A stretch of DNA of 11,370 bases from a virus (taxonomy: Duplodnaviria > Heunggongvirae > Uroviricota > Caudoviricetes): positions 1 through 11,370 of the IMG/VR virus record IMGVR_UViG_2585427766_000010; one strand, written 5' to 3'. The position numbers were made by a program, and so were the translations under genes. Positions 1-11,370 of this stretch are shown piece by piece (within the stretch, counting starts at the first letter, position 1; each line of letters starts with the position of its first letter). Under the pieces are notes generated by a model. It was not told where the DNA came from. It ran no database searches and saw nothing but the letters and a program-made list of their open reading frames with translations.

Positions 1-46
1 CCGCCCACGCAATATTGCCTTCAATTATATTGTGAGAACCGCATAA
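1..46 (+). CDS. Tail fiber protein, extreme C-terminal end only (5' part lies upstream of the window); cassette Sv_c
   Basis: Frame starting at base 2 reads RPRNIAFNYIVRTA then TAA at 44-46, matching the last 14 residues of the two minus-strand fiber cassettes (TRPRNIAFNYIVRAA, TRPRNVAFNYIVRAA). The stop overlaps the tfa ATG at 46 (TAATG). Confidence 0.6.
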   Translation, partial: RPRNIAFNYIVRTA

Positions 47-657
47 TGAATAACGCGATATTAAATGATGACCTTATTGCCGTACAGGCAGGAAACATCG
101 TCGTTTATAACTATGATGGTGAGACACGGGAATATATTTCCGAATCAACTGAATATCTTGCTGTGGGTGTCGGTATTCCGGCAAATTCCTGTTTAGATGC
201 CCCGGGCGCACATAAAGCGGGCTATGCTATCCGCCGTTCGGAGAATTTAAGTTCATGGGAGTATGCGCCAGACCATCGTGGTGAAACCGTCTATAGCACT
301 GACACGGGAAACACCGAAGAAATCACGGCGCTGGGTGACTACCCGAAAACTACAACCACTATCGCCCCGTTAACACCATACGATAAATGGGATGGTGAAA
401 AATGGGTGACAGATACTGAGGCACAACATCGTGCCGCAGTAGAAGCGGCAGAAACCAAGCGCCAGTCACTGGCTGATGCGGCAATGGCTTCCATAAGTCT
501 GATTCAGTTGAAGTTGCAGGCCGGGCGGAAGTTGACGCAGGCAGAAACCACCCGGCTTAATGCCGTGCTGGATTATATAGACGCGCTGAACGCAATGGAT
601 ATAAACATGGTACCAGATATCAACTTGCCGGAAATACCACTGGCAGCAGCCAGTTGA
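46..657 (+). CDS. Tail fiber assembly protein (Tfa; lambda Tfa / Mu U-like chaperone)
   Basis: 203-aa ORF with ATG at 46 and TGA at 655-657. Motifs typical of the Tfa family as I recall them: PDHRGETVY, KWDGEKWVTDTEAQ, and a C-terminal ...MVPDINLPEIP segment. It follows a fiber C-terminus on the same strand with start/stop overlap. Confidence 0.88.
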   Translation: MNNAILNDDLIAVQAGNIVVYNYDGETREYISESTEYLAVGVGIPANSCLDAPGAHKAGYAIRRSENLSSWEYAPDHRGETVYSTDTGNTEEITALGDYPKTTTTIAPLTPYDKWDGEKWVTDTEAQHRAAVEAAETKRQSLADAAMASISLIQLKLQAGRKLTQAETTRLNAVLDYIDALNAMDINMVPDINLPEIPLAAAS

Positions 658-663
658 ATATAA

Positions 664-1140
664 CTAAGCCGCCCTCACGATATAGTTAAATGCAATATTG
701 CGGGGGCGGGTTTCACTACCACCTGTGTTACCAATACTTCCTCGTGAATGAAGCGTTGGTGATGGAATCAAACTCCCTCCTGTATTTGTGGCATCAAGCC
801 CCCTGCCTTGTGTATATGTTTTTTTGAAAATCGTAGCCAACTCCCATTCATCTTTTGTGTCATATCCATCGTTAGCTACAACAATATGGCGGTGTTTTTC
901 CAACATCCCGTTTTGAATGCTCAATAAAGCGCGTGCCGCATCAATTCCTCGCCCATCATCCCAGCCACGGATAAATTCACCGCGTAAATCCGGTAATTTA
1001 TTGGTGGGGTAGGCCTTTGCCAGATTGGGGTACATTTCAGAAGAAAATGCTGCACCGTTACATTTCAGCCAGCCCGTTGGTGGTGTGGCTGAGGGCCATG
1101 GAACAGGCACACCAACGGGCAGTGCAGAGCCTTCCCCCAA
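664..1140 (-). CDS. Alternative tail-fiber C-terminal cassette (Sv_b): promoterless, start-less copy of the fiber distal domain
   Basis: The open frame runs from a stop at 1162-1164 down to TAG at 664-666. The track start at 1140 is a TTG with no Shine-Dalgarno upstream. The first ~65 aa (GLGEGSALPVGVPVPWPSATPPTGWLKCNGAAFSSEM...LPDLRGEFIRGWDDGRG) are near-identical to residues ~219-285 of the upstream fiber; the middle diverges; the last 15 aa are conserved again. Confidence 0.6.
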   Translation of the reverse strand: MGEGSALPVGVPVPWPSATPPTGWLKCNGAAFSSEMYPNLAKAYPTNKLPDLRGEFIRGWDDGRGIDAARALLSIQNGMLEKHRHIVVANDGYDTKDEWELATIFKKTYTQGRGLDATNTGGSLIPSPTLHSRGSIGNTGGSETRPRNIAFNYIVRAA

Positions 1141-1145
1141 ACCAA
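926..1145 (-). repeat. Direct repeat copy A (~220 bp), 5' homology block of cassette Sv_b
   Basis: Aligned by eye against 1440-1659 at a constant 514-bp offset; roughly 88-90% identical, differences mostly transitions. Homology stops abruptly at both ends. Confidence 0.8.
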
Positions 1146-1157
1146 CGTTTTCATGCG
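1132..1157. other. Candidate serine-invertase crossover site (site 2), 12-2-12 layout TTCCCCCAAACC-AA-CGTTTTCATGCG
   Basis: Sits exactly at the upstream edge of the cassette homology and spans the fiber stop codon. The left half-site matches the TTCnnnnAAACC pattern of hix/gix/cix sites as I remember them; the right half-site is degenerate. Confidence 0.4.
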
Positions 1158-2305
1158 GCTCTTACGATGTAATTAAATGCAACGTTGCGAGGGCGAGTTT
1201 CTGTACCTACATTTCCACTAATTTCACCAAACCGTCTTACATTACGAGAGCTAATGGCTCGTAGTGAGGAAGGCACCTTTAAACCGGGTTCGTCTGTTTT
1301 AACTATTCCCCCGTCCCCGTATGTAGCCAGTATTCCAGGGTTTACTCCTTCCCGTGTGCTTCCCGTGGCAAGTCCATCCCCGGTCCATAATTCCATATAG
1401 TGTGCATGATCCAAAATTGTGTGTGGCTGCCAATTAAGCAAAGCGCGGCCAGCATCCACCCCGCGCCCATCATCCCAGCCGCGAATAAATTCTCCCCGTA
1501 AATCCGGTAATTTATTGGCGGGGTAGGCCTTTGCCAGATTGGGGGACATTTCAGAAGAAAATGCTGCACCGTTACATTTCAGCCACCCCGTTGGCGGCGT
1601 GGCTGAAGGCCATGGAACGGGCACACCAACGGGCAGCGCCGAGCCTTCCCCTAAACCAAGGTAATTGAGGACTTCTTTTATACTGCCCATAGCGATAATA
1701 GCGCGACCAATAGCTGTAAGGGTTGTCAGTGCTGCGCGGTCTGCTCCGGTAAAATAAGGCAACCGATCTGCTGCAGTGGCAAGTCCTGCCAGAGCAGTGA
1801 GCGTGGCATCTGCCGGTTGTTTTCCGTTTGCCAGATCGTATGCAGCCTTGACCGCTTTCGGTGTGGCGGCCAGTATTTCAGACGTGCTGTTGATGTCACT
1901 GCTCAATTGTACGGTGCCTTTTGCCGTCAGCGAGGCAGCAGGCACTCCCGTTATCTGACTCCACGGGTGAGTATGGCTGACGGGGGCCTTGCCGGCAGCC
2001 AGGTCATATGCAGCCTTGACGGCCTTTGGTGTGGCGGCCAGCGTTTCAGAGGTGCTGTTGGTGGCACTGCTCAGTTGGGTGAACCCCTTAGCTGTCAGTG
2101 TCGCGTCCGGGTGGTTACGGGAACGTACGTGTTCAGCCAGTGACTGTGCGGCTTCCTCCGTTTTTTTCTTCAGCCATTTCGTCCTGTTTGCCAGTTGCCG
2201 GGGGGCTCGATTTGATATCCCGTCTGCACCACCCAGAACCGGATCTGATGTCTCCAGTTGATAGATATTTTCTTCCCACTTTTCTGTTTCATTCAGGTTT
2301 CCCAT
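1151..2305 (-). CDS. Tail fiber protein (Sc constant part plus Sv_a distal cassette)
   Basis: Long ORF with stop TGA at 1151-1153. Preferred start is the ATG at 2305-2303, which has GGGAG 9 nt upstream; the track start (TTG at 2311) is too close to that GGGAG to be likely. Contains two copies of the phage fiber repeat (LTAKG..QLSS...STSE.LAATPKAVKAAYDLA.GK) and a collar-like domain (WLKCNGAAF...LPDLRGEFIRGWDDGRG). Confidence 0.88.
   Translation of the reverse strand: MGNLNETEKWEENIYQLETSDPVLGGADGISNRAPRQLANRTKWLKKKTEEAAQSLAEHVRSRNHPDATLTAKGFTQLSSATNSTSETLAATPKAVKAAYDLAAGKAPVSHTHPWSQITGVPAASLTAKGTVQLSSDINSTSEILAATPKAVKAAYDLANGKQPADATLTALAGLATAADRLPYFTGADRAALTTLTAIGRAIIAMGSIKEVLNYLGLGEGSALPVGVPVPWPSATPPTGWLKCNGAAFSSEMSPNLAKAYPANKLPDLRGEFIRGWDDGRGVDAGRALLNWQPHTILDHAHYMELWTGDGLATGSTREGVNPGILATYGDGGIVKTDEPGLKVPSSLRAISSRNVRRFGEISGNVGTETRPRNVAFNYIVRAA
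1440..1659 (-). repeat. Direct repeat copy B (~220 bp), 5' homology block of cassette Sv_a inside the fiber gene
   Basis: Partner of 926-1145; same orientation, 514 bp apart. Confidence 0.8.
1646..1671. other. Candidate serine-invertase crossover site (site 1), TTCCCCTAAACC-AA-GGTAATTGAGGA, at the Sc/Sv_a junction
   Basis: Same left half-site and AA core as site 2; the right half (GGTAATTGAGGA) partly matches the GGTTTnnGAnAA pattern. Lies in the same codon phase as site 2 relative to the cassette frames (core in codon positions 2-3 of ...NYL / ...ENV before GLGEGS). Confidence 0.45.
1820..2098 (-). repeat. Tandem in-frame repeat inside the fiber shaft (two units, period 168 bp / 56 aa)
   Basis: tgcagccttgac recurs at 1841 and 2009; the encoded units LTAKGFTQLSSATNSTSETLAATPKAVKAAYDLAAGK and LTAKGTVQLSSDINSTSEILAATPKAVKAAYDLANGK match the common phage tail fiber repeat. 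Confidence 0.75.
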
Positions 2306-2307
2306 AA

Positions 2308-2886
2308 TCAACTGCTCCCGTGGTTATAACTGCCATCATGGATGGCGGTATTGTTATAGCGAATGGCCACAGACTGATACTCCAGGCTGGCCAGATGGCA
2401 GCGGGCCGGTGCAAATGCAGCCAGCGTCTGACGCAGCATCGCGGCCTGATCGTTAGTAATGGGCTGTTTCAGAATAACGCGATAAACTGCCCAGGCGGCT
2501 GCATCTCCATGAACAAACAGTCCGTTATAGCTGCGATTGCCGTCGTAACTGAGACGACCTGTGCCTTCAATCAGATCCACTTCACCAAAGCCAAAACGGC
2601 GGATAACTTCCCGGATTGACCACGGCGTCCCTTTATACCGGTGCAGTTCGATGGCTGCTTTTATAAGCATGCGGCGAACATCGTCCGATTCCGCCAGCTC
2701 CCAGCCATCGCCAGACAGTGAGAACTGCTCGCCCAGCCATGGCAGCGCGGAACTGTCGACGATATCGACGAGAAAGACCATCAGTACGCTCAGGTCGATG
2801 TTATCCAGCCGTCCTGCCAGTCTTCCCAGCGTCCTGAGACTGATATCACCCTCAAGCGGTGGCGGGAGTTGTAATGGCTCAGTCAT
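2308..2886 (-). CDS. Baseplate/tail protein, P2 gpI-like (Mu gp48-like)
   Basis: 192-aa ORF, ATG at 2886-2884 with GGAG upstream. Its stop overlaps the fiber start region and its start overlaps the gpJ 3' end by 8 bp. Size and position (between the J-like gene and the fiber) fit gpI. Confidence 0.8.
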   Translation of the reverse strand: MTEPLQLPPPLEGDISLRTLGRLAGRLDNIDLSVLMVFLVDIVDSSALPWLGEQFSLSGDGWELAESDDVRRMLIKAAIELHRYKGTPWSIREVIRRFGFGEVDLIEGTGRLSYDGNRSYNGLFVHGDAAAWAVYRVILKQPITNDQAAMLRQTLAAFAPARCHLASLEYQSVAIRYNNTAIHDGSYNHGSS

Positions 2887-3982
2887 CAGACACTCCAGTC
2901 ATGTTAAGAGTGATTGCCGTACAGTTTGCCCATTCGTTTTCTGCCACCACCCGCAGTGCCGGTGTCACCAGTTCAACCTGGTACACCCCGGAAACGGACA
3001 ATGCACTGATAATCTGGCTGGGGACAATATCGCGCCCCAGCGTGGCGGCACGTGATGCCACCCAGTTCTGTATGGCGCTGTTAGCGGCATCTTTTACAGA
3101 CCTGGCATCCTGATCACGATAGATCGTAATCTTGGCTTCAATGGTGTAATCCACCTTCACTGGTGTTTTAGCCCGCACTGTATCAGTGAGTGGCCTGACT
3201 TTCTCATCAGAGCAGAAACTCTCTACCAGCGTGAGAACACCGCCGTCCGGCAGACCGGTACTGAGCAGCGGATACAGATCTACGGTCCCGGGAACCGGGG
3301 AAAGCACAGCAACATCGACAATGTTGGGATGGGCCTGCATGGCATGAAAGCGGTATGCGCCACGGCTTCCGGCATTGGTGAATGACTCCGGGGCCAGCCT
3401 GATACGCTCCCGGAGCCTGTCATCGTCTTCCTGTTCTGAACCGCCGGAACTGGCCGTCAGATTGCTCACCAGCAGGTCGACGTTATCAATCTCATCGAGT
3501 AACTGACTGACCTGCGCAGGTTGCCAGCCGTTACCAGCGGTACCGGGTTCGGTACAGGTGGACGTGACATTGACCAGCAGCAATCCGGCCTTCAGTACCA
3601 CATCTGTATCGGTGGCAAAAATAACGCTGTCGGAAGCGCTGACGCGGGTGCCTGCCGGGATCAGCACATCAATGGCCAGTGCCTCATCTACGGAGAACTG
3701 GAGCGTGGTAGTGGCAGGCTGCGCGGCAAGACGGTATACACCGACCAGTTCACCGAGGTAATCAATCATCGGCTCACGGGCAAAGGCGACCAGATTCTGC
3801 TTTGCTGCCTCCTGTACCGCAACCCTGACCAGCATTTCGCGATAGGCCCACAGATCAATCAGCAGACGTTCTGCCTGTGCCGGGTACAGCGTTTTGCCGG
3901 TATCCGCTTCATACTTCGCAATCATTTCTGCCGTGATTTTGTCGGCATCGCGTTCAATAAAATCGGGTTCTGTCAGCGCCAT
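2879..3982 (-). CDS. Baseplate J-like protein (P2 gpJ / Mu gp47 family)
   Basis: 367-aa ORF, ATG at 3982-3980 with AGGAG upstream. Position between W-like and I-like genes and size are typical of baseplate wedge J proteins. Confidence 0.85.
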   Translation of the reverse strand: MALTEPDFIERDADKITAEMIAKYEADTGKTLYPAQAERLLIDLWAYREMLVRVAVQEAAKQNLVAFAREPMIDYLGELVGVYRLAAQPATTTLQFSVDEALAIDVLIPAGTRVSASDSVIFATDTDVVLKAGLLLVNVTSTCTEPGTAGNGWQPAQVSQLLDEIDNVDLLVSNLTASSGGSEQEDDDRLRERIRLAPESFTNAGSRGAYRFHAMQAHPNIVDVAVLSPVPGTVDLYPLLSTGLPDGGVLTLVESFCSDEKVRPLTDTVRAKTPVKVDYTIEAKITIYRDQDARSVKDAANSAIQNWVASRAATLGRDIVPSQIISALSVSGVYQVELVTPALRVVAENEWANCTAITLNMTGVSDD

Positions 3983-4320
3983 AGCAGCTCCTGAGTCCGG
4001 GTCTGTCCGTCTGAGCCTTTCCAGCTCACCCGGAGCGTAAGATGTTCGCCGTCGACGGCGGGTTTAACTGACATAAGCTGGCAGCGGGGCTCCCAGCGCC
4101 GGATGGCATCGACGGATTCGCGCACCACATGCGGAATGGCCCGGTCTACAGGCCAGTCGATATAAAGATGCAGATTGCTGCCGAACTCCGGGCGATGCGG
4201 GTCGCTGCCGCGGGGAGTCCGCAGGATAATTTGAATCGCCTGCCGGATATCATCCAGCCCCCGGACAATTTCGCCGGGAGCCTGCAGGGTCGGTTGCCAG
4301 AATACTGAGGTTGTTTTCAT
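3973..4320 (-). CDS. Baseplate wedge protein, GPW/gp25-like (P2 gpW / Mu gp46 family)
   Basis: 115-aa ORF, ATG at 4320-4318. Size and the ...IRQAIQIILRTPRGSDPHRPEFGSNLH... segment resemble the GPW/gp25 family; overlaps the J-like gene by 10 bp. Confidence 0.8.
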   Translation of the reverse strand: MKTTSVFWQPTLQAPGEIVRGLDDIRQAIQIILRTPRGSDPHRPEFGSNLHLYIDWPVDRAIPHVVRESVDAIRRWEPRCQLMSVKPAVDGEHLTLRVSWKGSDGQTRTQELLWR

Positions 4321-4338
4321 GGGGGCAGTATTGCCCCC
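4321..4338 (-). other. Perfect 7-bp-stem hairpin (GGGGGCA-GTAT-TGCCCCC) directly abutting the gpW start codon
   Basis: Inverted repeat read directly in the 54-bp gpV-gpW gap. There is no downstream U-tract on the transcribed strand, so it is not a canonical terminator. Confidence 0.35.
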
Positions 4339-4374
4339 GTGCGGGAACGCTGATATTAAAGGCGTTTAAAAAGC

Positions 4375-4971
4375 TCAGTGGGAGTGGTGGCTGGAGTTTT
4401 CGCCATCAGACAACATACTGCCCGTGGCATGGGCATTCCCTTTAATCTCGATATTGCCATGGATGGTCGCGGTAACCCCTTCACCACCAGAACCCGCCAT
4501 GCCTCCTTCGTAAATCAGCTTACCCCTGACACGCAGATCTCCGGTAAGTTCGGTTTCCGGTGCGTCAATCGTGGCTTTCTGTGTTTTCAATACCACATCA
4601 GCACCACACTCAATGACAATATGCTCAATGCCGCCCCGGATGGTCAGAGTGTGCGTCTTCCGGTTGTAGCTGTACTCTGCACCATCAGCAAACCGGGTTC
4701 CCCGGATATTTTTGTCACTGAACGGTGGTTTATCGACGTCTGAATACACCGCGCCCAGAATAACACCATCCTCGCCGTTGGCATCGAGCAGCACCTCAAC
4801 CTGCTCCCCCACGTCAGGGAGCCAGTAATCTTTGTTATCCTGGGTATTGCGCTGCAGCACGTTAAGCCAGTTTGTGCGCAGGTTATCGCATTCAGGCAGA
4901 CGAACGCGGGCCTGAACCCTGTCGGCATCAACGGCACTGACCGTACCGACCTGACGAGTGACACCAGTCAT
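4375..4971 (-). CDS. Baseplate assembly/spike protein V (P2 gpV / Mu gp45 family)
   Basis: 198-aa ORF, ATG at 4971-4969 with AAGGAG upstream and ATGA overlap with the gpD-like stop. The ...WLPDVGEQVEVLLDANGEDGVILGAVYSD... N-domain and a C-terminal spike region resemble gpV. Confidence 0.82.
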   Translation of the reverse strand: MTGVTRQVGTVSAVDADRVQARVRLPECDNLRTNWLNVLQRNTQDNKDYWLPDVGEQVEVLLDANGEDGVILGAVYSDVDKPPFSDKNIRGTRFADGAEYSYNRKTHTLTIRGGIEHIVIECGADVVLKTQKATIDAPETELTGDLRVRGKLIYEGGMAGSGGEGVTATIHGNIEIKGNAHATGSMLSDGENSSHHSH

Positions 4972-6122
4972 TTTTTCTTCTCCTTAATCACCGTCGATGT
5001 ACTGCCATCCGGGTGATAAACCGTGAGTTTCTGAGTTTTTTGTTTTTTCCCTCTTGTGACTGGCCCCCGTGCCACTTCCAGCTCTGTGGTGTAGCCGCTG
5101 TTACGGTCAAACGCATGGCGGGCAGTGGTTATGAGCCATGGCCCGGATAACTGCCCAAAACCCACCAGTTCAATTTTGTTGCCTGCTGTCAGTTGAGGTG
5201 TTCCCGTCAGCGTCAGGGAGCCGTTCTGCTGGTATTCGTTATGTCTGGCCAGTGCTGAATCCGCTTTAATCCGGGCACTGTCCGGGTCGCTGACGCGGCT
5301 GTTAACTTTAAGTGAGTCAGCGCTGGTAACCTTACCACCTTTGAGCTTTTTGTCGCTTTCACGGGTACCACCATCAGCTTCGTAGACGATCAGTTTTTTA
5401 CTGCTGCTTTTCTGGTGTTTTACCTTTGCAGATTTATAGACCCGGTTGATGGTGTCACGCAGGGAAAAGCGGGCCACATCCTGCGGTTTTAACTGCCTGA
5501 CCGGCTCCTGACTGCGCAGTGTGGCCAGATGAGAAAAAATCAGCTGGTCACTGACCACTTTCACTGCATAACCATACTCGCTGGCCAGCCGGCGCAGAAA
5601 ACCCACGTCGGTTTCAGCATACTGGGTCACCCGGTCGATTCTGATGGACTCAATGCTGCCCACCAGTTTCAGTCGGTGCTTTCTGGCAATCCGCCCCGCA
5701 ACAGCTGCCAGCGTGGTGTTCTCAAAACCACGACTGGTTTTAGTCCGCAGGGCACTGTTAACCGAGGTGGCCACCCCACGGATAGAAACAACGGAAGCGG
5801 GCGAACTCACTTCGATCTCGTCTATAGAGAACGTACCGCAGGACAGCAGCTTCTCGCCCTGATAGCCCATTTTCAGCGTCAGCGTGTCACCCTTGCCCGG
5901 ATACCATTTATCCAGCCAGCGGCCATCGGTGTCGTCCAGCTCCACCTCAATGGTATCGGACTCATTTTTGATGTTATCGCTCCAGGTCACACGGGTGACA
6001 TAAGGCGCGATATCAGAGGTGATGTTTTTCTGCAGATACCACAAAGTGAACACCGGTGTCAGCACATCGCTGACGCCGGTTAACGCTGATGTGACTTGCG
6101 CAGTGCTGTTTATCTCAGCCAT
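4968..6122 (-). CDS. Late control gene D-like tail protein (baseplate hub; P2 gpD / Mu gp44 family)
   Basis: 384-aa ORF, ATG at 6122-6120. Size and position immediately upstream of gpV are characteristic; Lys-rich C-terminus. Confidence 0.82.
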   Translation of the reverse strand: MAEINSTAQVTSALTGVSDVLTPVFTLWYLQKNITSDIAPYVTRVTWSDNIKNESDTIEVELDDTDGRWLDKWYPGKGDTLTLKMGYQGEKLLSCGTFSIDEIEVSSPASVVSIRGVATSVNSALRTKTSRGFENTTLAAVAGRIARKHRLKLVGSIESIRIDRVTQYAETDVGFLRRLASEYGYAVKVVSDQLIFSHLATLRSQEPVRQLKPQDVARFSLRDTINRVYKSAKVKHQKSSSKKLIVYEADGGTRESDKKLKGGKVTSADSLKVNSRVSDPDSARIKADSALARHNEYQQNGSLTLTGTPQLTAGNKIELVGFGQLSGPWLITTARHAFDRNSGYTTELEVARGPVTRGKKQKTQKLTVYHPDGSTSTVIKEKKK

Positions 6123-6322
6123 GGGGCAATATCCTCTTCTGTACGGGCTTCTTCAGCCTCAATCACCGGGATCAGTAACAACAGCCCGGAGGGCAGCACC
6201 GGCGTGATGGCCACGTGCGGATTGGCGGCAATAATCCGGGGATAGCCCAGCGGGTCACCGTAGTACTGCCATGCCAGCGAATCCCAGCGCTCTCCGTCAC
6301 GGGTAACATGTTCAAGAAACAT
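6110..6322 (-). CDS. Tail protein X-like (P2 gpX family, LysM-like)
   Basis: About 70 aa. Preferred start is the ATG at 6322-6320 (the track's 6325 start is GTG). The ...WDSLAWQYYGDPLGYPRIIAANP...LPSG...IPVIE pattern resembles gpX; 1-bp overlap with the upstream gene's stop (TGATG). Confidence 0.7.
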   Translation of the reverse strand: MFLEHVTRDGERWDSLAWQYYGDPLGYPRIIAANPHVAITPVLPSGLLLLIPVIEAEEARTEEDIAPWLR

Positions 6323-7206
6323 CACACACTCCTCGTCAGTATTCTGGCGGCCATTGCACTTAATCCCGGAGACATGCGGTTGAATGCTGTGCCGGCGGCG
6401 TTAAGCTGCCCGGAAACGGTATCCAGAGCATCTGCAATATTTCTTTTGTCCACACCACTCAGCGCAGACTGTGCCTGCTGTACATACGTGGCTGCTTCGC
6501 TGGCTGTTCTGGCCAGACTGATGGCATCGGGCATGGATTCAGAGAGTGCGTTAAACGCCGGAACACTTTTCCCCAGAGCCCCGGAGATATTACCCAGTCC
6601 GCTCATCAGCCCCGGCACACGGGTCAGTGCGACAACGGGGTTATCCTTCATTTTCTGTGTCACCCGAACGGCGCTGATAGTGGTCTGGAGTACAGACTGC
6701 GCCTGTTTCGCATAGTTGACGCCGTTGCGGATGAACTGCGCCACCCCTGAAGGTGAAGGTATGGCACCGGAGACCGCCCCGACACCCGGGAGCTTCGTGC
6801 GTATTGCCGGTGGTTGCAGAGGATTTTTCGGGTCACCGGTGTATTCCCGGAGAGACACGGTGGCACTGACAGCCAGCACGTTGCCGGTACTGTCAGTCTG
6901 CTCGCTGGTTGCAGTCACATCGGTAATCACGAACCAGCCGCGATAGTCACCGTTGCCGAAGACCAGCGCCAGTGCCTGATGGGCTTTCATGGCTGTTCGC
7001 AGTCTCGCCAGCTCCACATCGGGTACACAATAATGCTGATGGAAAACCAGAGTTATCTGGATTTCGTCCAGCCTGTCGCCGACGAACTGCAGGCCAGGCT
7101 TACCCCCGATGCGGGCATGCTCCGCATAATCGACGCCGAACGTGGCCTCGAAGCCGTCCCAGTAGGTAATCAGCTCAAACTCAATATCACCCAGTACGGC
7201 AAACAT
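6322..7206 (-). CDS. Tail protein with P2 gpU-like N-terminal domain and an Ala/Ser-rich C-terminal extension
   Basis: 294-aa ORF, ATG at 7206-7204, abutting the tape measure stop. The N-terminal ~130 aa (MFAVLGDIEFELITYWDG...GLQFVGDRLDEIQITLVFHQ) resemble gpU; the C-terminal ~160 aa are low-complexity. Confidence 0.65.
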   Translation of the reverse strand: MFAVLGDIEFELITYWDGFEATFGVDYAEHARIGGKPGLQFVGDRLDEIQITLVFHQHYCVPDVELARLRTAMKAHQALALVFGNGDYRGWFVITDVTATSEQTDSTGNVLAVSATVSLREYTGDPKNPLQPPAIRTKLPGVGAVSGAIPSPSGVAQFIRNGVNYAKQAQSVLQTTISAVRVTQKMKDNPVVALTRVPGLMSGLGNISGALGKSVPAFNALSESMPDAISLARTASEAATYVQQAQSALSGVDKRNIADALDTVSGQLNAAGTAFNRMSPGLSAMAARILTRSV

Positions 7207-9106
7207 CAGCGGTACTCCTTACGTTGTTTCTGAGCCAGCAGACGCTCCAGCATTTTTTCCAGCTCATGCAGACTCATATTCAGGGCACCAGTCAGTCCTG
7301 CAGGCGCTGTGGTTTCCCTGCCATTGAGGAAAAACTGAGGATTAAAGCTGACCTGGATACCACCAGACGTTCCACCGCCGGTTGCAGCTGCACCACGGCC
7401 TGAATATCCGGCAGCCAGGATTTCAGGCGAGGGGATACGGGGAACATCCGGTGTCATCTCATTTGCCAGACGTTGCCCTGGTAAAATCGATGCCCGGGTG
7501 GAGAGCGGAATAGCGGGCATGGAAGACAAACTATTGATTACGGCTCCGATCGCATTTTTAGCAGACGACATAAACCCATTGATATCGGGCAACGGCATAC
7601 TGAAGCGAACACCTGAAGTGTTATCCCGTATTTCTGGCCCCTGGATGCTCACGGGCATTCTGGGGAGCAGTTCACTGGCCATTCGCTGCCCGGCCAGAGC
7701 TGCAAGCGGAGTGGTCCGCTGCAGGCCAATGGCGGCCCCCTGCGCGATATTGTCACCAAAGCCCATAAACACGCGGCTCGGCGAATGAATGCCCAGCTTT
7801 TCGCTGAACCAGCCACTGATGCTGTCACCCATTCCGGTTACACTGGATTTGAGCGACTCCCATTTGTTTTTGATACCGTTAATCAGACCATCGACAAGAT
7901 GGCCACCGAAGTCGGTAAACTTTGCCGGCAGATCAACACCAAGATATTTCAGCGCAGCTGCAAAGGCTTTATAGAGCAGGCCTGCCGGCGACCAGTTAAT
8001 CAGTAACTTACCAATTCCCACAATGCCGCCGTTAAAGGCTTCCTGAATGTCTGCCCAGCGCTGTTTAAACCAGCCACTGACTGCCCCCCAGTTGCGGTAG
8101 ATAAGGTAAGCTGCTGCCGCGACAGCGGTGATAACGAGACCGATGGGATTCATCATCAGCGCACGTCCAATCCAGAGAACAGCACGTCCGGCGAGCATAA
8201 TTCCGCGAACCAGCCCCTCGGAGAGCACGCCACTCAGTGTTCTGGCTCCTCTGGCGACGGCGCTAAATCCGGTCACCAGCCAGCGGAGCTTACCGCCTTG
8301 CCCCAGTGCGAGCGACAGACGAAGCCAGTTGGCCCGAAGTAAAACAGCATTTTTCCAGACACTTACAAAGGGGGAAATAAGGAGATTCAGCCCCAGTTTG
8401 AGACCAACAGTCGCTATCTTAATCGCAAGGAGCGCACTGATGAGCTTAAAAGCCCCACTGACAAATTGCGGGTGAGTCGCTACCCAGTGTTTTGCCCCCT
8501 GAATGAGTGGAAGCAGTTCCTGAGTCAAAGAAATAAAAGATGGAGCTAATTGATCGCCCAGCGTAATTGCCAGATCGCGACTGCTGACCATAAGTGTTTT
8601 AGTGGCTTCAAGGGGAGATTTCAGCCGCTGATCATAAGCACTGGCAAGCAAATCGTTATCCGCAGCCCTGAGAGCACCGGCACGGATCTCTCGATATCTG
8701 TCCATGTTGGCCAGCATCGGGCGGATAAATGCCATGACCTGCATATCCGCGAACATATCGCCCAGACCAAAGTTTTTCGCCAGAGCCTGAAGTGCCTCAT
8801 CTCTTGCCGTATCATTCTTTATTTTCATGGCTGATTTGAAGCCGGCCAGCGCTTCGGGGCTTTTGGCATTGAGGTAACGTTCTATAACACTCAACATCCC
8901 TTCAATCGGAGAGATCCCCGCAGCTTTATAACTCGCAATAGATCCCTGCAAATCAATACCCAGATCAGCAAACTGTTTCTGAGTATCGCGGGCAAAAATT
9001 TTGGTAAGAAAGTTTTTAAAATTATTGGCTGCTTCGTCGGTGGAACCTGCACCGATTTTTGCTATCTGGAGACTGGCCCCGATTTCAGCAACAGCCTCTT
9101 TTCCAC
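7206..9106 (-). CDS. Tail tape measure protein, 5'-interrupted by the IS66-family insertion (probable pseudogene/fragment)
   Basis: Stop TGA at 7208-7206. The frame is open upstream well past the track start (TTG at 8951) to about 9106, where the sequence becomes the IS end (in-frame stop at 9155-9153 inside the IS). Contains the GIHSPSRVF-type motif and long hydrophobic helices typical of tape measure proteins. Confidence 0.75.
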
Positions 9107-9192
9107 TGTAAGCGTAAAGCCAATGCCGTCTGTAACACCTGCTCCTTGCAGACTAAATTAGAGCTCCTTCTAAATTAGACGGAGTTCTATTG

Positions 9193-9627
9193 ATGGATAA
9201 ACCTACAGACTGGCGCTCCGGAACCCGCCGGATATTTTCTAATGAATTTAAACTTCATATGGTTGAACTGGCTTCGAAACCAAATGCCAATGTTGCACAA
9301 CTGGCCCGGGAACATGGCGTTGATAACAACCTGATTTTTAAATGGCTACGCCTCTGGCAAAGAGAAGGACGTATTTCTCGTAGAATGCCTCCAACTATTG
9401 TAGGCCCTACAGTATCACAATCTTTTCCGGCCTCTCCGACTCTGGTTCCAGTGGAACTTATCGACACCCCGCGCTGTGCTACAGATGCTCCTGCTCCGGA
9501 GGCATTATCAGTTGCTTGTGCAGCTTCCTGCCATGTGGAATTCCATTACGGTAAAATGATGCTGGAAAATCCTTCACCAGAGCTGCTCACGGTGTTGATC
9601 CGTGAGCTGACCGGGAGGGGACGATGA
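9193..9627 (+). CDS. tnpA: IS66-family accessory protein TnpA (orf1)
   Basis: ATG at 9193 with GGAG 8 nt upstream (the track start at 9190 is TTG); about 144 aa. Stop overlaps the tnpB start (ATGA at 9624-9627). Confidence 0.8.
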   Translation: MDKPTDWRSGTRRIFSNEFKLHMVELASKPNANVAQLAREHGVDNNLIFKWLRLWQREGRISRRMPPTIVGPTVSQSFPASPTLVPVELIDTPRCATDAPAPEALSVACAASCHVEFHYGKMMLENPSPELLTVLIRELTGRGR

Positions 9628-9974
9628 TTTCACTCCCATCAGGTACCCGTATCTGGCTCGTTGCCGGCGTTACTGATATGCGTAAATCCTTCAACGGTCT
9701 GGGGGAGCAGATACAGCATGTGCTGGATGATAACCCCTTCTCCGGTCACCTGTTTATCTTCCGTGGCCGACGGGGAGACACGATTAAAATCCTGTGGGCT
9801 GATGCTGATGGTCTGTGCCTGTTCACCAAACGCCTTGAGGAAGGTCAGTTTATCTGGCCTGCGGTGCGTGACGGTAAGATATCCATTACCCGCTCGCAAC
9901 TGGCAATGCTCCTCGATAAGCTGGACTGGCGTCAGCCAAAAACATCCCGCCTTAACGCACTGACAATGTTGTAA
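9624..9974 (+). CDS. tnpB: IS66-family accessory protein TnpB (orf2)
   Basis: 116 aa; MISLPSGTRIWLVAGVTDMRKSFNGL...IKILWADADGLCLF... is the characteristic IS66 Orf2 sequence as I recall it. Confidence 0.85.
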   Translation: MISLPSGTRIWLVAGVTDMRKSFNGLGEQIQHVLDDNPFSGHLFIFRGRRGDTIKILWADADGLCLFTKRLEEGQFIWPAVRDGKISITRSQLAMLLDKLDWRQPKTSRLNALTML

Positions 9975-10004
9975 AAAACTCCTGACCGCATTATAAAAAC
10001 GGCC

Positions 10005-11370
10005 ATGAGTCAGAAATACCTCATTCGCATCGCTGAGCTGGAAAGGCTGCTCTCTGAGCAGGCTGAAGCCCTCCGTCAGAAAGACCAGCAACTGAGTCTG
10101 GTTGAAGAGACGGAGGCCTTCCTGCGCTCTGCACTGGCACGTGCCGAAGAAAAGATCGAAGAAGATGAACGGGAAATAGAGCATCTGCGGGCTCAGATAG
10201 AAAAACTGCGCCGGATGCTGTTCGGAACCCGTTCTGAAAAACTGCGTCGTGAGGTTGAACAGGCTGAAGCCCTGCTGAAACAACGCGAGCAGGAAAGCGA
10301 TCGTTACAGTGGGCGTGAGGATGACCCGCTGGTTCCCCGCCAGTTGCGACAGTCGCGCCATCGTCGTCCGTTACCGGCACATCTCCCCCGTGAAATATAC
10401 CGCCTGGAGCCTGAAGAAAGCTGTTGCCCGGAGTGTGGCGGTGAGCTGGATTATCTGGGGGAAGTCAGCGCAGAACAACTGGAACTGGTGAGCAGCGCCC
10501 TGAAAGTGATCCGCACAGAACGGGTAAAAAAAGCCTGTACAAAATGTGACTGCATCGTTGAAGCACCGGCACCATCCCGTCCGATAGAGCGTGGTATCGC
10601 GGGCCCGGGGTTACTTGCCCGCGTGTTAACGGGAAAATACTGCGAACACCTGCCACTGTATCGTCAGAGTGAAATCTTTGCCCGCCAGGGTGTCGAACTG
10701 AGCCGTGCCTTACTCTCCAACTGGGTTGATGCGTGCTGCCAGTTAATGACGCCGCTGAATGATGCCCTGTACAGTTATGTGATGAACACCCGCAAGGTTC
10801 ACACTGATGACACACCAGTAAAAGTACTGGCACCGGGCAGGAAGAAGGCGAAAACAGGATATATCTGGACGTATGTCCGGGATGACCGAAATGCCGGTTC
10901 GCCAGAACCTCCGGCGGTCTGGTTCGCCTACTCACCGGACCATCAGGGTAAACATCCGGAGCAACACCTTCGTCCCTTCCGGGGTATCCTGCAGGCAGAT
11001 GCGTTCGCAGGTTACGATCGGCTGTTCAGTGCCGAACGTGAAGGCGGCGCGTTGACGGAAGCAGGATGCTGGGCTCATGCGCGGCGCAAAATCCACGATG
11101 TATATATCAGTACCAAAAGCGCGACGGCGGAAGAAGCACTGAAACTAATCGGCGAACTGTACGCCATTGAGCACGAAATACGCGGGTTGCCGGTGTCTGA
11201 ACGCCTGGCGGTCAGGCAAATGCAGAGTAAACCGCTACTGACTTCCCTGTATAAGCTGATGCAGGAGAAAGAACACACGTTATCGAAAAAATGCCGTCTG
11301 AGAGATGCGTTCCGGTATATCAGGAAGCACTGGGTTGCGTTGTGCAACTTCTGTGATGACGGTCTGGCGG
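10005..11370 (+). CDS. tnpC: IS66-family transposase TnpC (orf3), 3'-partial (runs off the window)
   Basis: ATG at 10005, open to the end of the window (over 455 codons), so absent from the stop-delimited ORF track. Has an N-terminal coiled-coil/leucine-zipper-like region and a CPECGG...CTKCDC zinc-ribbon motif, as in IS66 transposases. Confidence 0.8.
   Translation, partial: MSQKYLIRIAELERLLSEQAEALRQKDQQLSLVEETEAFLRSALARAEEKIEEDEREIEHLRAQIEKLRRMLFGTRSEKLRREVEQAEALLKQREQESDRYSGREDDPLVPRQLRQSRHRRPLPAHLPREIYRLEPEESCCPECGGELDYLGEVSAEQLELVSSALKVIRTERVKKACTKCDCIVEAPAPSRPIERGIAGPGLLARVLTGKYCEHLPLYRQSEIFARQGVELSRALLSNWVDACCQLMTPLNDALYSYVMNTRKVHTDDTPVKVLAPGRKKAKTGYIWTYVRDDRNAGSPEPPAVWFAYSPDHQGKHPEQHLRPFRGILQADAFAGYDRLFSAEREGGALTEAGCWAHARRKIHDVYISTKSATAEEALKLIGELYAIEHEIRGLPVSERLAVRQMQSKPLLTSLYKLMQEKEHTLSKKCRLRDAFRYIRKHWVALCNFCDDGLA

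Follow-up and report, generated by a model that had tools for sequence, protein, structure and literature searches.

A probable Min-type inversion switch with three tail-fibre tips and a single convergent assembly gene in a P2/Mu-like prophage

Introduction

Tail-fibre switches of the Min type have been known since 1990-92. The Mu G, P1 C and e14 P segments each contain two sites and two cassettes, and either orientation has its own tail fibre assembly gene (tfa), the two genes lying back to back. The R64 shufflon relies on the tyrosine recombinase Rci and sfx sites, targets pilV adhesins instead of a phage fibre, and has no chaperone gene.

Three described systems come closest to the locus considered here. 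On a plasmid, a segment sharing 99% identity with p15B min carries one 612-nt tfaE together with pin, the tfa lying beside a cassette of ~459 nt (PMC5786510). In prophage Phi2 of E. coli EC958 (ST131) a 2067-bp segment was found in both orientations in one culture using PacBio reads (Forde et al., 2014, PMC4134206); that paper describes the two outer sites only, and neither the inner site nor the presence of just one tfa is taken up in it. The ‘shufflon’ of a P2-like prophage of EPEC E2348/69 comprises three partly homologous inverted repeats, nested inversions of ~2.2 and ~1.8 kb, three alternative C-termini and four coexisting variants, with tfa not being addressed (Goldberg et al., 2014, PMC4272514).

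Here we compare with these systems a caudoviral stretch of 11,370 nt (the window), which is the whole of contig JOQO01000076.1. We conclude, with a probability of roughly 70%, that its bases 1-1671 represent one isomer of a Din-family (Pin/Min-type) multiple-inversion switch of tail-fibre host range that is served by a single generalist Tfa.

Results

Organization of the window

The window ends inside a tip cassette, and the missing flank was taken from L010, an E. coli prophage locus on a 5.3-Mb contig that is 99.97% identical to window positions 1-9108 and represents the same isomer. The cassette in question is Sv_c (type K1), of which the 3′ end is present at 2..46 on the plus strand (14 codons and TAA; translation RPRNIAFNYIVRTA followed by the stop); the remainder is lost to the contig end, and the full cassette encodes 152 aa at L010 9543-10001. 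Its TAA (44-46) overlaps the ATG (46-48) of tfa, forming TAATG. The tfa gene (46..657, plus strand; TGA stop at 655-657) encodes 203 aa with a Pfam Caudo_TAP match (E = 8.9e-31); proteins identical to it are annotated with Caudo_TAP_N and Caudo_TAP (PF28596 and PF02413), and the exact protein is present in 547 blocks of the public collection. Considering these family domains and the position of the gene directly 3′ of a fibre tip (Sv_c), its product is a predicted fibre chaperone of the Caudo_TAP family. A search for named NCBIfam families covering Tfa or the cassette returned none.

Facing tfa on the minus strand is the silent tip cassette Sv_b (type K2; 664..1143; 159 codons and stop; Pfam Collar, E = 8e-15), which was delimited and typed by cassette extraction. 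Its stop is CTA (= TAG) at 664-666 and it starts at the right half-site GGTTTGGGGGAA, whose first base is 1143; the ORF tool called 664-1140, the extent to 1143 being taken from the half-site. The convergent stops are separated by the 6-bp spacer ATATAA (658..663). A lone tfa on the opposite strand, converging on the fibre operon with a 6-bp gap, had been claimed in an earlier note on this DNA and is confirmed by the ORFs and the sequence. Of 42 related tfa genes, 31 have a gap of 6 bp to the converging cassette and 8 a gap of 5 bp, and this comparison marks the close convergent spacing as a trait of the family rather than the product of chance.

The expressed fibre ORF occupies 1151-2305 on the minus strand, and its 384-aa product is a called gene on the source contig. 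It consists of the constant part Sc (1658..2305, minus strand; ATG at 2305-2303; Pfam Phage_fiber_2 repeats, E = 6.5e-38) and the variable part Sv_a (type K3 by cassette extraction and typing; 1151..1657, minus strand; 168 codons and stop). Sv_a has similarity to the gp37 tip of T4 (2xgf, E = 3.6e-14) and to a short tail fibre (9cuy, E = 1e-15), the alignments covering the N-terminal part of the tip and the C-terminal NIAFNYIVR strand, and both minus-strand tips match Pfam Collar. The tips show the T4 gp37/gp12-type collar pattern, in which a variable insert separates a collar motif at the N-terminal end from a conserved C-terminal strand; presumably this last strand returns to the collar, as in the gp37/gp12 structures and the Pfam description. 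The conserved C-terminal strand that had been noted as a ‘tag’ does exist, and is better read as the last strand of such a collar.

Upstream, and reading into the fibre gene, lies a tail/baseplate operon (2308..8951, minus strand) comprising gpI, J, W, V, D, X, U and a 5′-truncated tape-measure gene. Because an IS66-family element interrupts the tape-measure gene, the window's copy of the prophage is defective.

Crossover sites and invertase

Two 26-bp sites, for which 0 chance matches are expected, were found on the minus strand, each made of two imperfect 12-bp half-sites around a 2-bp TT core. The first (1646..1671; TCCTCAATTACC-TT-GGTTTAGGGGAA) lies at the Sc/Sv junction, and the second (1132..1157; CGCATGAAAACG-TT-GGTTTGGGGGAA) holds the Sv_a stop codon (1151-1153) in its left half. 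The e14 P-segment repeat TTGGTTTGGGAGAAGG is one base off the right half plus core of the second site (PMC12529663). A third site (GAGAGATAAACG-TT-GGTTTGGGGGAA) was found in L010 beyond the contig end of the window, where the order past the shared DNA is Sv_c, third site, invertase and then host chromosomal genes. The invertase lies 72 bp beyond Sv_c, has Resolvase and HTH_7 domains and matches Mu Gin (E = 1e-93). We infer from L010 that a Gin-like serine invertase and the third site adjoin the contig end of the window. With the L010 recombinase being a serine invertase, an R64-type shufflon was ruled out.

The truncation of the contig inside Sv_c might suggest that a second, co-oriented tfa lies just beyond the window or that the layout is an assembly artefact. 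We consider this hardly credible: in the same isomer on the 5.3-Mb contig Sv_c is followed by the third site, invertase and chromosomal genes, and a search for a second tfa was negative for the window, for L010 and, over 7-10 kb, for 40 of the 41 related loci. The co-oriented copy outside the window that the earlier note had named as the finding that would overturn it is thus not there in L010.

The sites lie inside the fibre ORF and the reading frame (...NYLGLGEGS...) is preserved for every cassette, which implies an in-frame 3′ swap; fused K1, K2, K3, K4, K5, K7 and K8 fibres occur in relatives. Left half-sites of the Sc type, the stop-codon type and the invertase-end type interchange between loci, which is what exchange at the TT core would give.

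Isomers and site grammar

In the switch that we propose, Sc would be fusable in frame to any of three collar-type tips, i.e., Sv_a (K3, fused at present), Sv_b (K2) and Sv_c (K1), by inversion between the 26-bp TT-core sites at the 5′ end of each cassette. The lone tfa would belong to an indivisible central unit (site-Sv_c-tfa> 6 bp <Sv_b-site), with all forward sites on its Sc side and all reverse sites on its invertase side, so that every inversion would flip tfa. Four isomers are predicted, tfa being co-transcribed with the tail operon in two of them and antisense in the other two, including that of the window. A single inner inversion, between the 1132-1157 site and that of Sv_c, would produce the order Sc-Sv_a > Sv_c > tfa; a co-oriented tfa would be reachable for Sv_a and never for Sv_b. 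That the minus-strand cassettes have no tfa on their strand, as previously stated, is correct for the isomer in the window, but as a fixed property of Sv_a it would not survive this inner inversion.

Natural isomers with identity >99.5% differ exactly at the sites: relative to the window, segment 1-1659 is inverted in L002, and Sv_b is fused in L007 and L013. Their coexistence in a culture is known from EC958 Phi2 (PMC4134206). Among assemblies tfa was co-oriented in 14 and antisense in 16. The site grammar was common to all 41 closest related loci, 40 of which have one tfa together with 2-9 collar-type cassettes (3-6 in complete loci), and P1-like plasmids (p15B-Min-like) show the same layout.

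One assembly gene for several tips

The contrast that had been drawn with Mu and P1, in which each variable part has its own assembly gene, is real, and sister loci with a Tfa ~78% identical to the present one (e.g., L089) also have their own tfa for each orientation. The tip types that have no tfa of their own here (K2 = Sv_b type, K3 = Sv_a type, K4, K5, K6, K8, K12) are found with an adjacent Tfa of the same family in these two-tfa loci, as is K15. The retention of a co-oriented tfa for each tip in the sister loci suggests that co-transcription matters.

Whole Tfas were up to 95-97.5% identical across different tip types, and identity in the Tfa N-domain was 81-93% between tip-type groups vs. 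84-96% within groups. The upstream variable regions were just 17-35% identical to K1, whereas Tfa was ~75-80% identical. Lambda Tfa can substitute for gp38 on the homologous T4 gp37 tip (PMC9659904, PMC3004832). Taken as comparative evidence, these data support a Tfa shared by all cassettes, which was one of the two readings originally put forward. The single Tfa would then be a generalist chaperone for all collar-type tips, probably acting on the conserved collar (the N-terminal ~65 aa and the C-terminal strand) and not on the variable insert. The Tfa of Mu has a fibre-specific N-domain that binds the distal fibre (PMC9608196), which calls for caution over such a collar-binding generalist. 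The Mu tip is not homologous to the present tips: sequence comparison detected no homology of the Mu tip and Mu Tfa to them or to the present Tfa. The Mu fibre-Tfa crystal complex was accordingly set aside as a model, since only the Sc repeats match Mu S and neither tip nor Tfa has a match.

An alternative is that Tfa is required by Sv_c (K1) alone, the remaining collar-type tips folding unaided or with the help of a general chaperone from host or phage, so that the direction in which tfa points would be irrelevant to them. The K1-tfa linkage with overlapping stop and start (36 of 37 loci) is in line with such a restricted role, which would also account for the selection on converging K2 described below; moreover, T4 gp12 has a collar domain and needs gp57A, not gp38, and gp37 mutants that bypass gp38 exist (PMC3004832). 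However, in two-tfa segments every K2, K3, K4, K5, K6, K8 or K12 tip has a closely related Tfa immediately behind it, and these Tfas do not track tip type, so that we regard a K1-restricted Tfa as improbable and retain the generalist Tfa as the preferred reading.

Selection on the converging cassette and supply of Tfa

In 28 related loci the converging cassette is of type K2, and it is intact in every case. Its dN/dS, as a pairwise average on related sequences, was 0.11 (0.17 in the variable part) and equal to that of tfa-linked K1. Judged by these values, Sv_b-type cassettes are under purifying selection. K2 also occurs elsewhere with its own tfa, and part of the constraint could come in by recombination.

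These data bear on the other of the two original readings, i.e., that the arrangement in the window is non-productive. With tfa antisense the Sc-Sv_a fibre could not trimerise, just the two tfa-forward isomers would be infectious, and inversion would toggle competence. The gene is indeed antisense to the sole evident late operon, the homologous T4 gp37 requires gp38 (PMC3004832), the same tip types carry an adjacent Tfa in two-tfa loci, and the productive Sv_a isomer would be one inversion away.

Nor was an orientation-independent promoter found in consensus scans, which is also in favour of a non-productive state: matches to a sigma-70 promoter for tfa in the antisense state were no richer than in shuffled sequence. 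A CTGGCA-16-TAAAAT motif inside Sv_c was rejected as a tfa promoter because it is unconserved, being present in 5 of 17 K1 variants and also in K6 and K8. P2-like relatives have, between gpU and the invertase, a hairpin with a 12-bp stem flanked by runs of A and T (L009 8853-8882), and this strong terminator blocks read-in from the neighbouring tail operon, again as expected of a non-productive state. P2-like and P1-like relatives carry one exact copy of the P2 late-promoter dyad TGT-N12-ACA in the spacer between invertase and site (L009 9487-9504), with no -10 element at the expected distance; the dyad was not found in the window-type spacer, and its copies across the locus were fewer than chance predicts.

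On the other hand, if antisense isomers were dead, converging Sv_b types could never function, yet they are intact and as constrained as tfa-linked K1, and half of the isomers would be wasted in a design that is kept on three phage backbones. The antisense orientation is also as frequent as the co-oriented one in assemblies, a weak point given that prophages are not selected for fibre state. Because of the purifying selection on Sv_b-type cassettes in particular, the proposal of a non-productive state is weakened and we consider it possible but doubtful.

A further option is that a different prophage of the same host cell provides antisense isomers with Tfa in trans. In genomes with any match to bases 1-2400 the median number of matching places is 2 and the maximum 18, the tfa shares 84% DNA identity with that of HK97, and cross-complementation of Tfa proteins between phages has been described (PMC9659904). 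Such a supply would require co-induction of an unrelated prophage and would not be guaranteed in every host, and we hold it to be very improbable.

Under the preferred reading of one generalist Tfa, antisense isomers are probably at least partly productive, which would call either for a supply of Tfa that does not depend on orientation or for no more than a partial need for it. Since tfa would flip with each inversion, yet the cassette that is never co-transcribed with it stays under purifying selection, we tentatively suggest that either Tfa is produced independently of orientation (e.g., from a promoter on the invertase side) or the orientation of tfa forms a superimposed on/off layer that gates fibre assembly whatever tip is chosen, though we rate this suggestion as unlikely. 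The antisense tfa poses a small and directly testable question on how switches avoid wasting half their isomers. If confirmed, a generalist Tfa would ease the engineering of P2-like, P1-like and tailocin fibres, as tips could be swapped while one chaperone is kept.

Comparison with known systems

The T4 gp37 tip with gp38 and lambda Stf with Tfa share with the present tips the collar including its C-terminal ...NIAFNYIVR strand, but involve no inversion and have the chaperone gene always co-oriented and directly 3′. In the R64 shufflon multiple inversions likewise put alternative C-termini on a constant N-terminal part. The Mu G, P1 C and e14 P segments resemble the present locus in having an invertase of the Gin/Cin/Pin family, sites at the Sc/Sv junction and an in-frame swap of the fibre C-terminus; their two-tfa layout is not found here, the present locus combining one tfa with three sites and three cassettes.

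By its published description, the shufflon in the P2-like prophage of EPEC E2348/69 is like the switch proposed here in its three repeats and four variants. EC958 Phi2 likewise joins a Phage_fiber_2 constant part to a Collar variable part; its segment measures 2067 bp vs. ~2.08 kb in L010, and its outer sites, TCCTCAATTACCTTGGTTTAGGAGAA (the 5′ site, at Sc, one base off the 1646-1671 site) and GAGAGATAAACGTTGGTTTGGGGGAA, are essentially those of the window type.

The p15B Min region (E. coli 15T-) and P1-like phage-plasmids likewise have a Pin/Min-type serine invertase, and the alternative 3′ cassettes of the fibre gene in p15B Min each have a 26-bp site at the 5′ end, with more than two such sites in all. 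The cassette types of these plasmids are the same as here and their tfa belongs to the same family (~82% identical). The window and L010 together show the corresponding elements, namely three cassettes, against 3-9 in relatives, two sites in the window with a third in L010, and a single tfa beside one cassette. p15B Min differs in having about six cassettes vs. three here, K6 vs. K2 as the converging cassette, and a P1-like plasmid backbone vs. a chromosomal P2/Mu-like myovirus prophage.

The Min-type architecture is thus already known, and the switch is of an ordinary, well-known type apart from the supply of Tfa when the gene faces backwards. The system itself is textbook, and in 2014 inversion was demonstrated for the same type of prophage in E. 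coli ST131. What is useful here is the site grammar, by which the chaperone gene would flip with each inversion, one cassette type would never be co-transcribed with it and one Tfa appears to serve many tips.

Gene layout and state of the prophage copy

The minus strand of the window carries a P2/Mu-like tail and baseplate operon that starts with a 5'-truncated tape-measure gene, continues with gpU, X, D, V, W, J and I, and ends in the fibre gene (1151-2305, 384 aa), in which a constant part (Sc) is fused to the tip cassette Sv_a (tip type K3). A 110-nt direct repeat within Sc (1821-1930 and 1989-2098; 78% identical, spacing 168 nt) corresponds to Phage_fiber_2 repeats. Downstream of the fibre gene, a 159-codon ORF fragment with a Collar domain (664-1143, minus strand) represents the silent cassette Sv_b (K2), and its stop codon faces that of the tail fibre assembly gene tfa (46-657, plus strand; Caudo_TAP, E=8.9e-31) across 6 bp. 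A third Collar-type tip, Sv_c (K1), is present only as its final 14 codons (2-46, plus strand), whose TAA overlaps the tfa ATG. The ORF positions and the Caudo_TAP and Collar matches confirmed the layout described in the earlier note.

The window is the whole of the 11,370-bp contig JOQO01000076.1. This contig ends at window position 1, 45 nt before the Sv_c stop, inside the invertible segment and away from any crossover site; the assembly probably broke there because tip or tfa sequence is repeated at other places in the genome. The missing flank was read from a near-identical prophage on a 5.3-Mb E. coli contig (L010), which has the same arrangement and 99.97% identity over window 1-9108. 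Beyond the window end it completes Sv_c, which is 152 aa in full, and continues with a crossover site (GAGAGATAAACG-TT-GGTTTGGGGGAA) and, after 72 bp, a 190-aa serine invertase (Mu Gin match, E=1e-93) followed by host genes. Since the flank runs from Sv_c through site and invertase into host genes, there is no second tfa just outside the window, where the earlier note had allowed for one.

Homology to intact relatives ends at 9108/9109, precisely where an IS66-family element starts (9109-11370), comprising orfA (HTH_Tnp_1, 9190-9627), a TnpB_IS66 gene (9624-9974) and a transposase gene that runs past the contig end. The tape-measure gene thereby loses its 5' part, and 581 aa remain where relatives encode 896-983 aa; this copy of the prophage is therefore defective regardless of which way the switch stands.

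Crossover sites and isomers

Two 26-bp crossover sites were located in the window, at the Sc/Sv_a junction (1646-1671) and across the Sv_a stop and Sv_b start (1132-1157), against a chance expectation of none. In each site a TT core separates a 12-bp left half, which varies, from the right half GGTTT(G/A)GGGGAA. Left half-sites across the relatives are of three kinds (the Sc type, a type holding the TGA stop of the preceding cassette, and an invertase-end type), and their swapping between loci matches strand exchange at the core exactly. As the left half of every internal site contains the preceding stop codon (GCA TGA AAACG; window 1146-1157 and equivalents), cassette end and recombination site are a single fused module and cassettes chain head to tail. 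Two sites each in the relatives L004 (8982, 11572) and L011 (7506, 8504) have a core one base shorter (...AAACG-T-GGTTTGGGGGAA instead of ...AAACG-TT-GG...) and may be either a separate compatibility class or crippled sites.

Among relatives more than 99.5% identical, natural isomers were found: compared with the window, segment 1-1659 is inverted in L002, with Sv_c fused and tfa co-oriented with the tail operon, and Sv_b is fused in L007 and L013. The e14 P-segment repeat nearly equals the window sites (PMC12529663), and the outer site pair of E. coli EC958 prophage Phi2, whose 2067-bp segment occurs in both orientations among PacBio reads from one culture, is essentially the same apart from a single-base difference in the Sc site (PMC4134206). 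In EPEC, PCR demonstrated a version with three repeats and four variants in a P2-like prophage (PMC4272514). The window region is probably one isomer of a multiple-inversion switch.

Relative to the central unit (Sv_c, tfa and converging Sv_b), all forward sites lie towards Sc and all reverse sites towards the invertase. Din invertases act on inverted sites, so each inversion should take in the central unit and flip tfa. The three-site system of the window would give four isomers: (i) Sc-K3 > K2 > < tfa < K1 (window and L010), (ii) Sc-K3 > K1 > tfa > < K2, (iii) Sc-K1 > tfa > < K2 < K3 (L001 and L002), and (iv) Sc-K2 > < tfa < K1 < K3 (L007 and L013). It follows from the site arrangement and these isomers that one inner inversion would make Sv_a expressible with tfa downstream in the same operon, and that tfa would always be co-oriented for Sv_c and never for Sv_b. 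Comparable arrangements, in which silent cassettes separate the fused tip from tfa, occur in L004 and L071. Public assemblies show 14 loci with a co-oriented and 16 with an antisense tfa, which is the expectation for a freely flipping switch in unselected lysogens.

Productivity of the isomers with antisense tfa

The earlier note offered a non-productive state as one explanation of the antisense tfa. In its favor, promoter, terminator and dyad scans revealed no route to an antisense tfa transcript: consensus promoter scans gave chance-level results, and the sole match inside K1 is polymorphic and not K1-specific. P2-like relatives have a strong terminator between the neighboring operon and the invertase; in one of them, L009, a 12-bp-stem bidirectional hairpin lies between gpU and the invertase (8853-8882). 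Gene order in the P2-like L008 and L009 differs from canonical P2 in that the FI-FII-E-T-U block is inverted, converging on the invertase and fibre segment. In L009, the 55-bp spacer that separates the invertase start codon from the outer crossover site contains an exact TGT-N12-ACA dyad (TGTTTCGTGAAAAATACA, 9487-9504), the sequence form of P2 Ogr-binding sites, which recurs in the corresponding spacers of P2-like and P1-like relatives. The dyad is without promoter geometry, with no -10 element at the expected distance, and is absent from the window-type spacer.

Selection on K2 nevertheless stands against dead isomers. Although a converging K2 cassette can be expressed only with tfa antisense, it is intact in 28/28 copies, and its dN/dS, averaged over pairs of related sequences, is 0.11 for the whole cassette and 0.17 for the variable part (pS 0.12-0.20), the same level as the tfa-linked K1 (0.13 and 0.22). 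This constraint could possibly reflect recombination with loci where K2 owns a tfa. We put at about 0.5 the probability that isomers with antisense tfa retain at least partial productivity via some route; that they are dead appears doubtful, and Tfa-independent tips or Tfa supplied in trans are, even taken together, less probable still. A modest but testable puzzle thus lies in the single flipping tfa and the selection on a cassette that it can never accompany.

Tip specificity of Tfa

Homology of the tips to the T4 gp37 tip (2xgf), to T4 gp12 and to a short tail fibre (9cuy) covers the collar motif at the N-terminus and, at the C-terminus, the strand ...NIAFNYIVR, with an unrelated insert between them. 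The conserved C-terminal strand that the earlier note had regarded as a tag, through which one Tfa might serve all cassettes, is better read as part of the collar fold, in line with the structures of gp12 and gp37 and with the way Pfam describes the domain.

In two-tfa sister loci K2, K3, K4, K5, K6, K8, K12 and K15 each directly precede a Tfa of the window family. The N-domains of these Tfas are 81-93% identical between tip-type groups and 84-96% within them, and between whole Tfas that accompany different tips identity reaches 95-97.5%, while the variable regions of the tips upstream share only 17-35% identity with K1. At the sequence level, Tfas of sister loci do not track tip type. In the few loci whose tips have a terminal ...LVRAK in place of ...IVRAA, the Tfa N-domain is only ~27-36% identical, and in two E. 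coli loci of this type the C-domain is still 76-81% identical; this small sample hints that the N-domain may co-vary with the collar. Published work agrees that the Tfa chaperone family works across tips: lambda Tfa can stand in for gp38 on gp37 (PMC9659904, PMC3004832), and the fibre-binding part of Mu Tfa is the N-domain (PMC9608196). A shared generalist Tfa is thus likely, which agrees with one of the two options in the earlier note, apart from the tag.

Comparison with known systems

A total of 136 loci encoding relatives of the window Tfa were mapped for tfa, collar cassettes, Sc, gpI and invertase, and the 41 loci with a Tfa at least 80% identical to that of the window formed the close set. 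All but one of these (40/41) have a lone tfa. They hold 3-6 cassettes when complete and up to 9 in partial loci, with 144/151 cassettes intact and 15 tip types. The layout is constant: Sc > [forward cassettes] > [K1-tfa > gap < converging cassette] < [reverse cassettes] < invertase end. K1 directly precedes tfa in 36/37 cases, and the gap to the converging cassette is 6 bp for 31 and 5 bp for 8 of the 42 tfa genes. The sole close relative with two tfa (L058, 4600-8200) has two central units in a palindrome (K2 > < tfa < c c > tfa > < K2), which could be a true inverted duplication or an assembly artefact from mixed isomers. Since P2-like loci of Photorhabdus show the order fibre > silent collar cassette > tfa (L022, 5424-7597; Tfa only ~44-49% identical), this layout is not limited to E. 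coli.

The classical layout of Mu, P1 and e14 has, unlike window-type loci, two back-to-back tfa genes, as does the sister group (Tfa ~78% identical), where one serves a collar tip and the other, encoding a shorter Tfa, a non-collar tip. In L089 (6453-9523), of sister architecture, a K3 (Sv_a-type) collar cassette and its Tfa of 201 aa face another Tfa, of 147 aa, which has a different N-domain and belongs to a non-collar tip. How many tfa genes a locus has seems to follow its count of tip classes rather than that of cassettes.

The single-tfa layout is borne by three backbones, namely P2-like prophages, the window-type myovirus prophage and ~200 P1-like plasmids. In one P1-like plasmid a segment with one 612-nt tfaE and pin is 99% identical to p15B min (PMC5786510). 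The window architecture is therefore that of p15B Min, known since 1990-92. The lone antisense tfa was correctly observed and in part correctly interpreted; it is a standard member of this known system, within a defective prophage copy.
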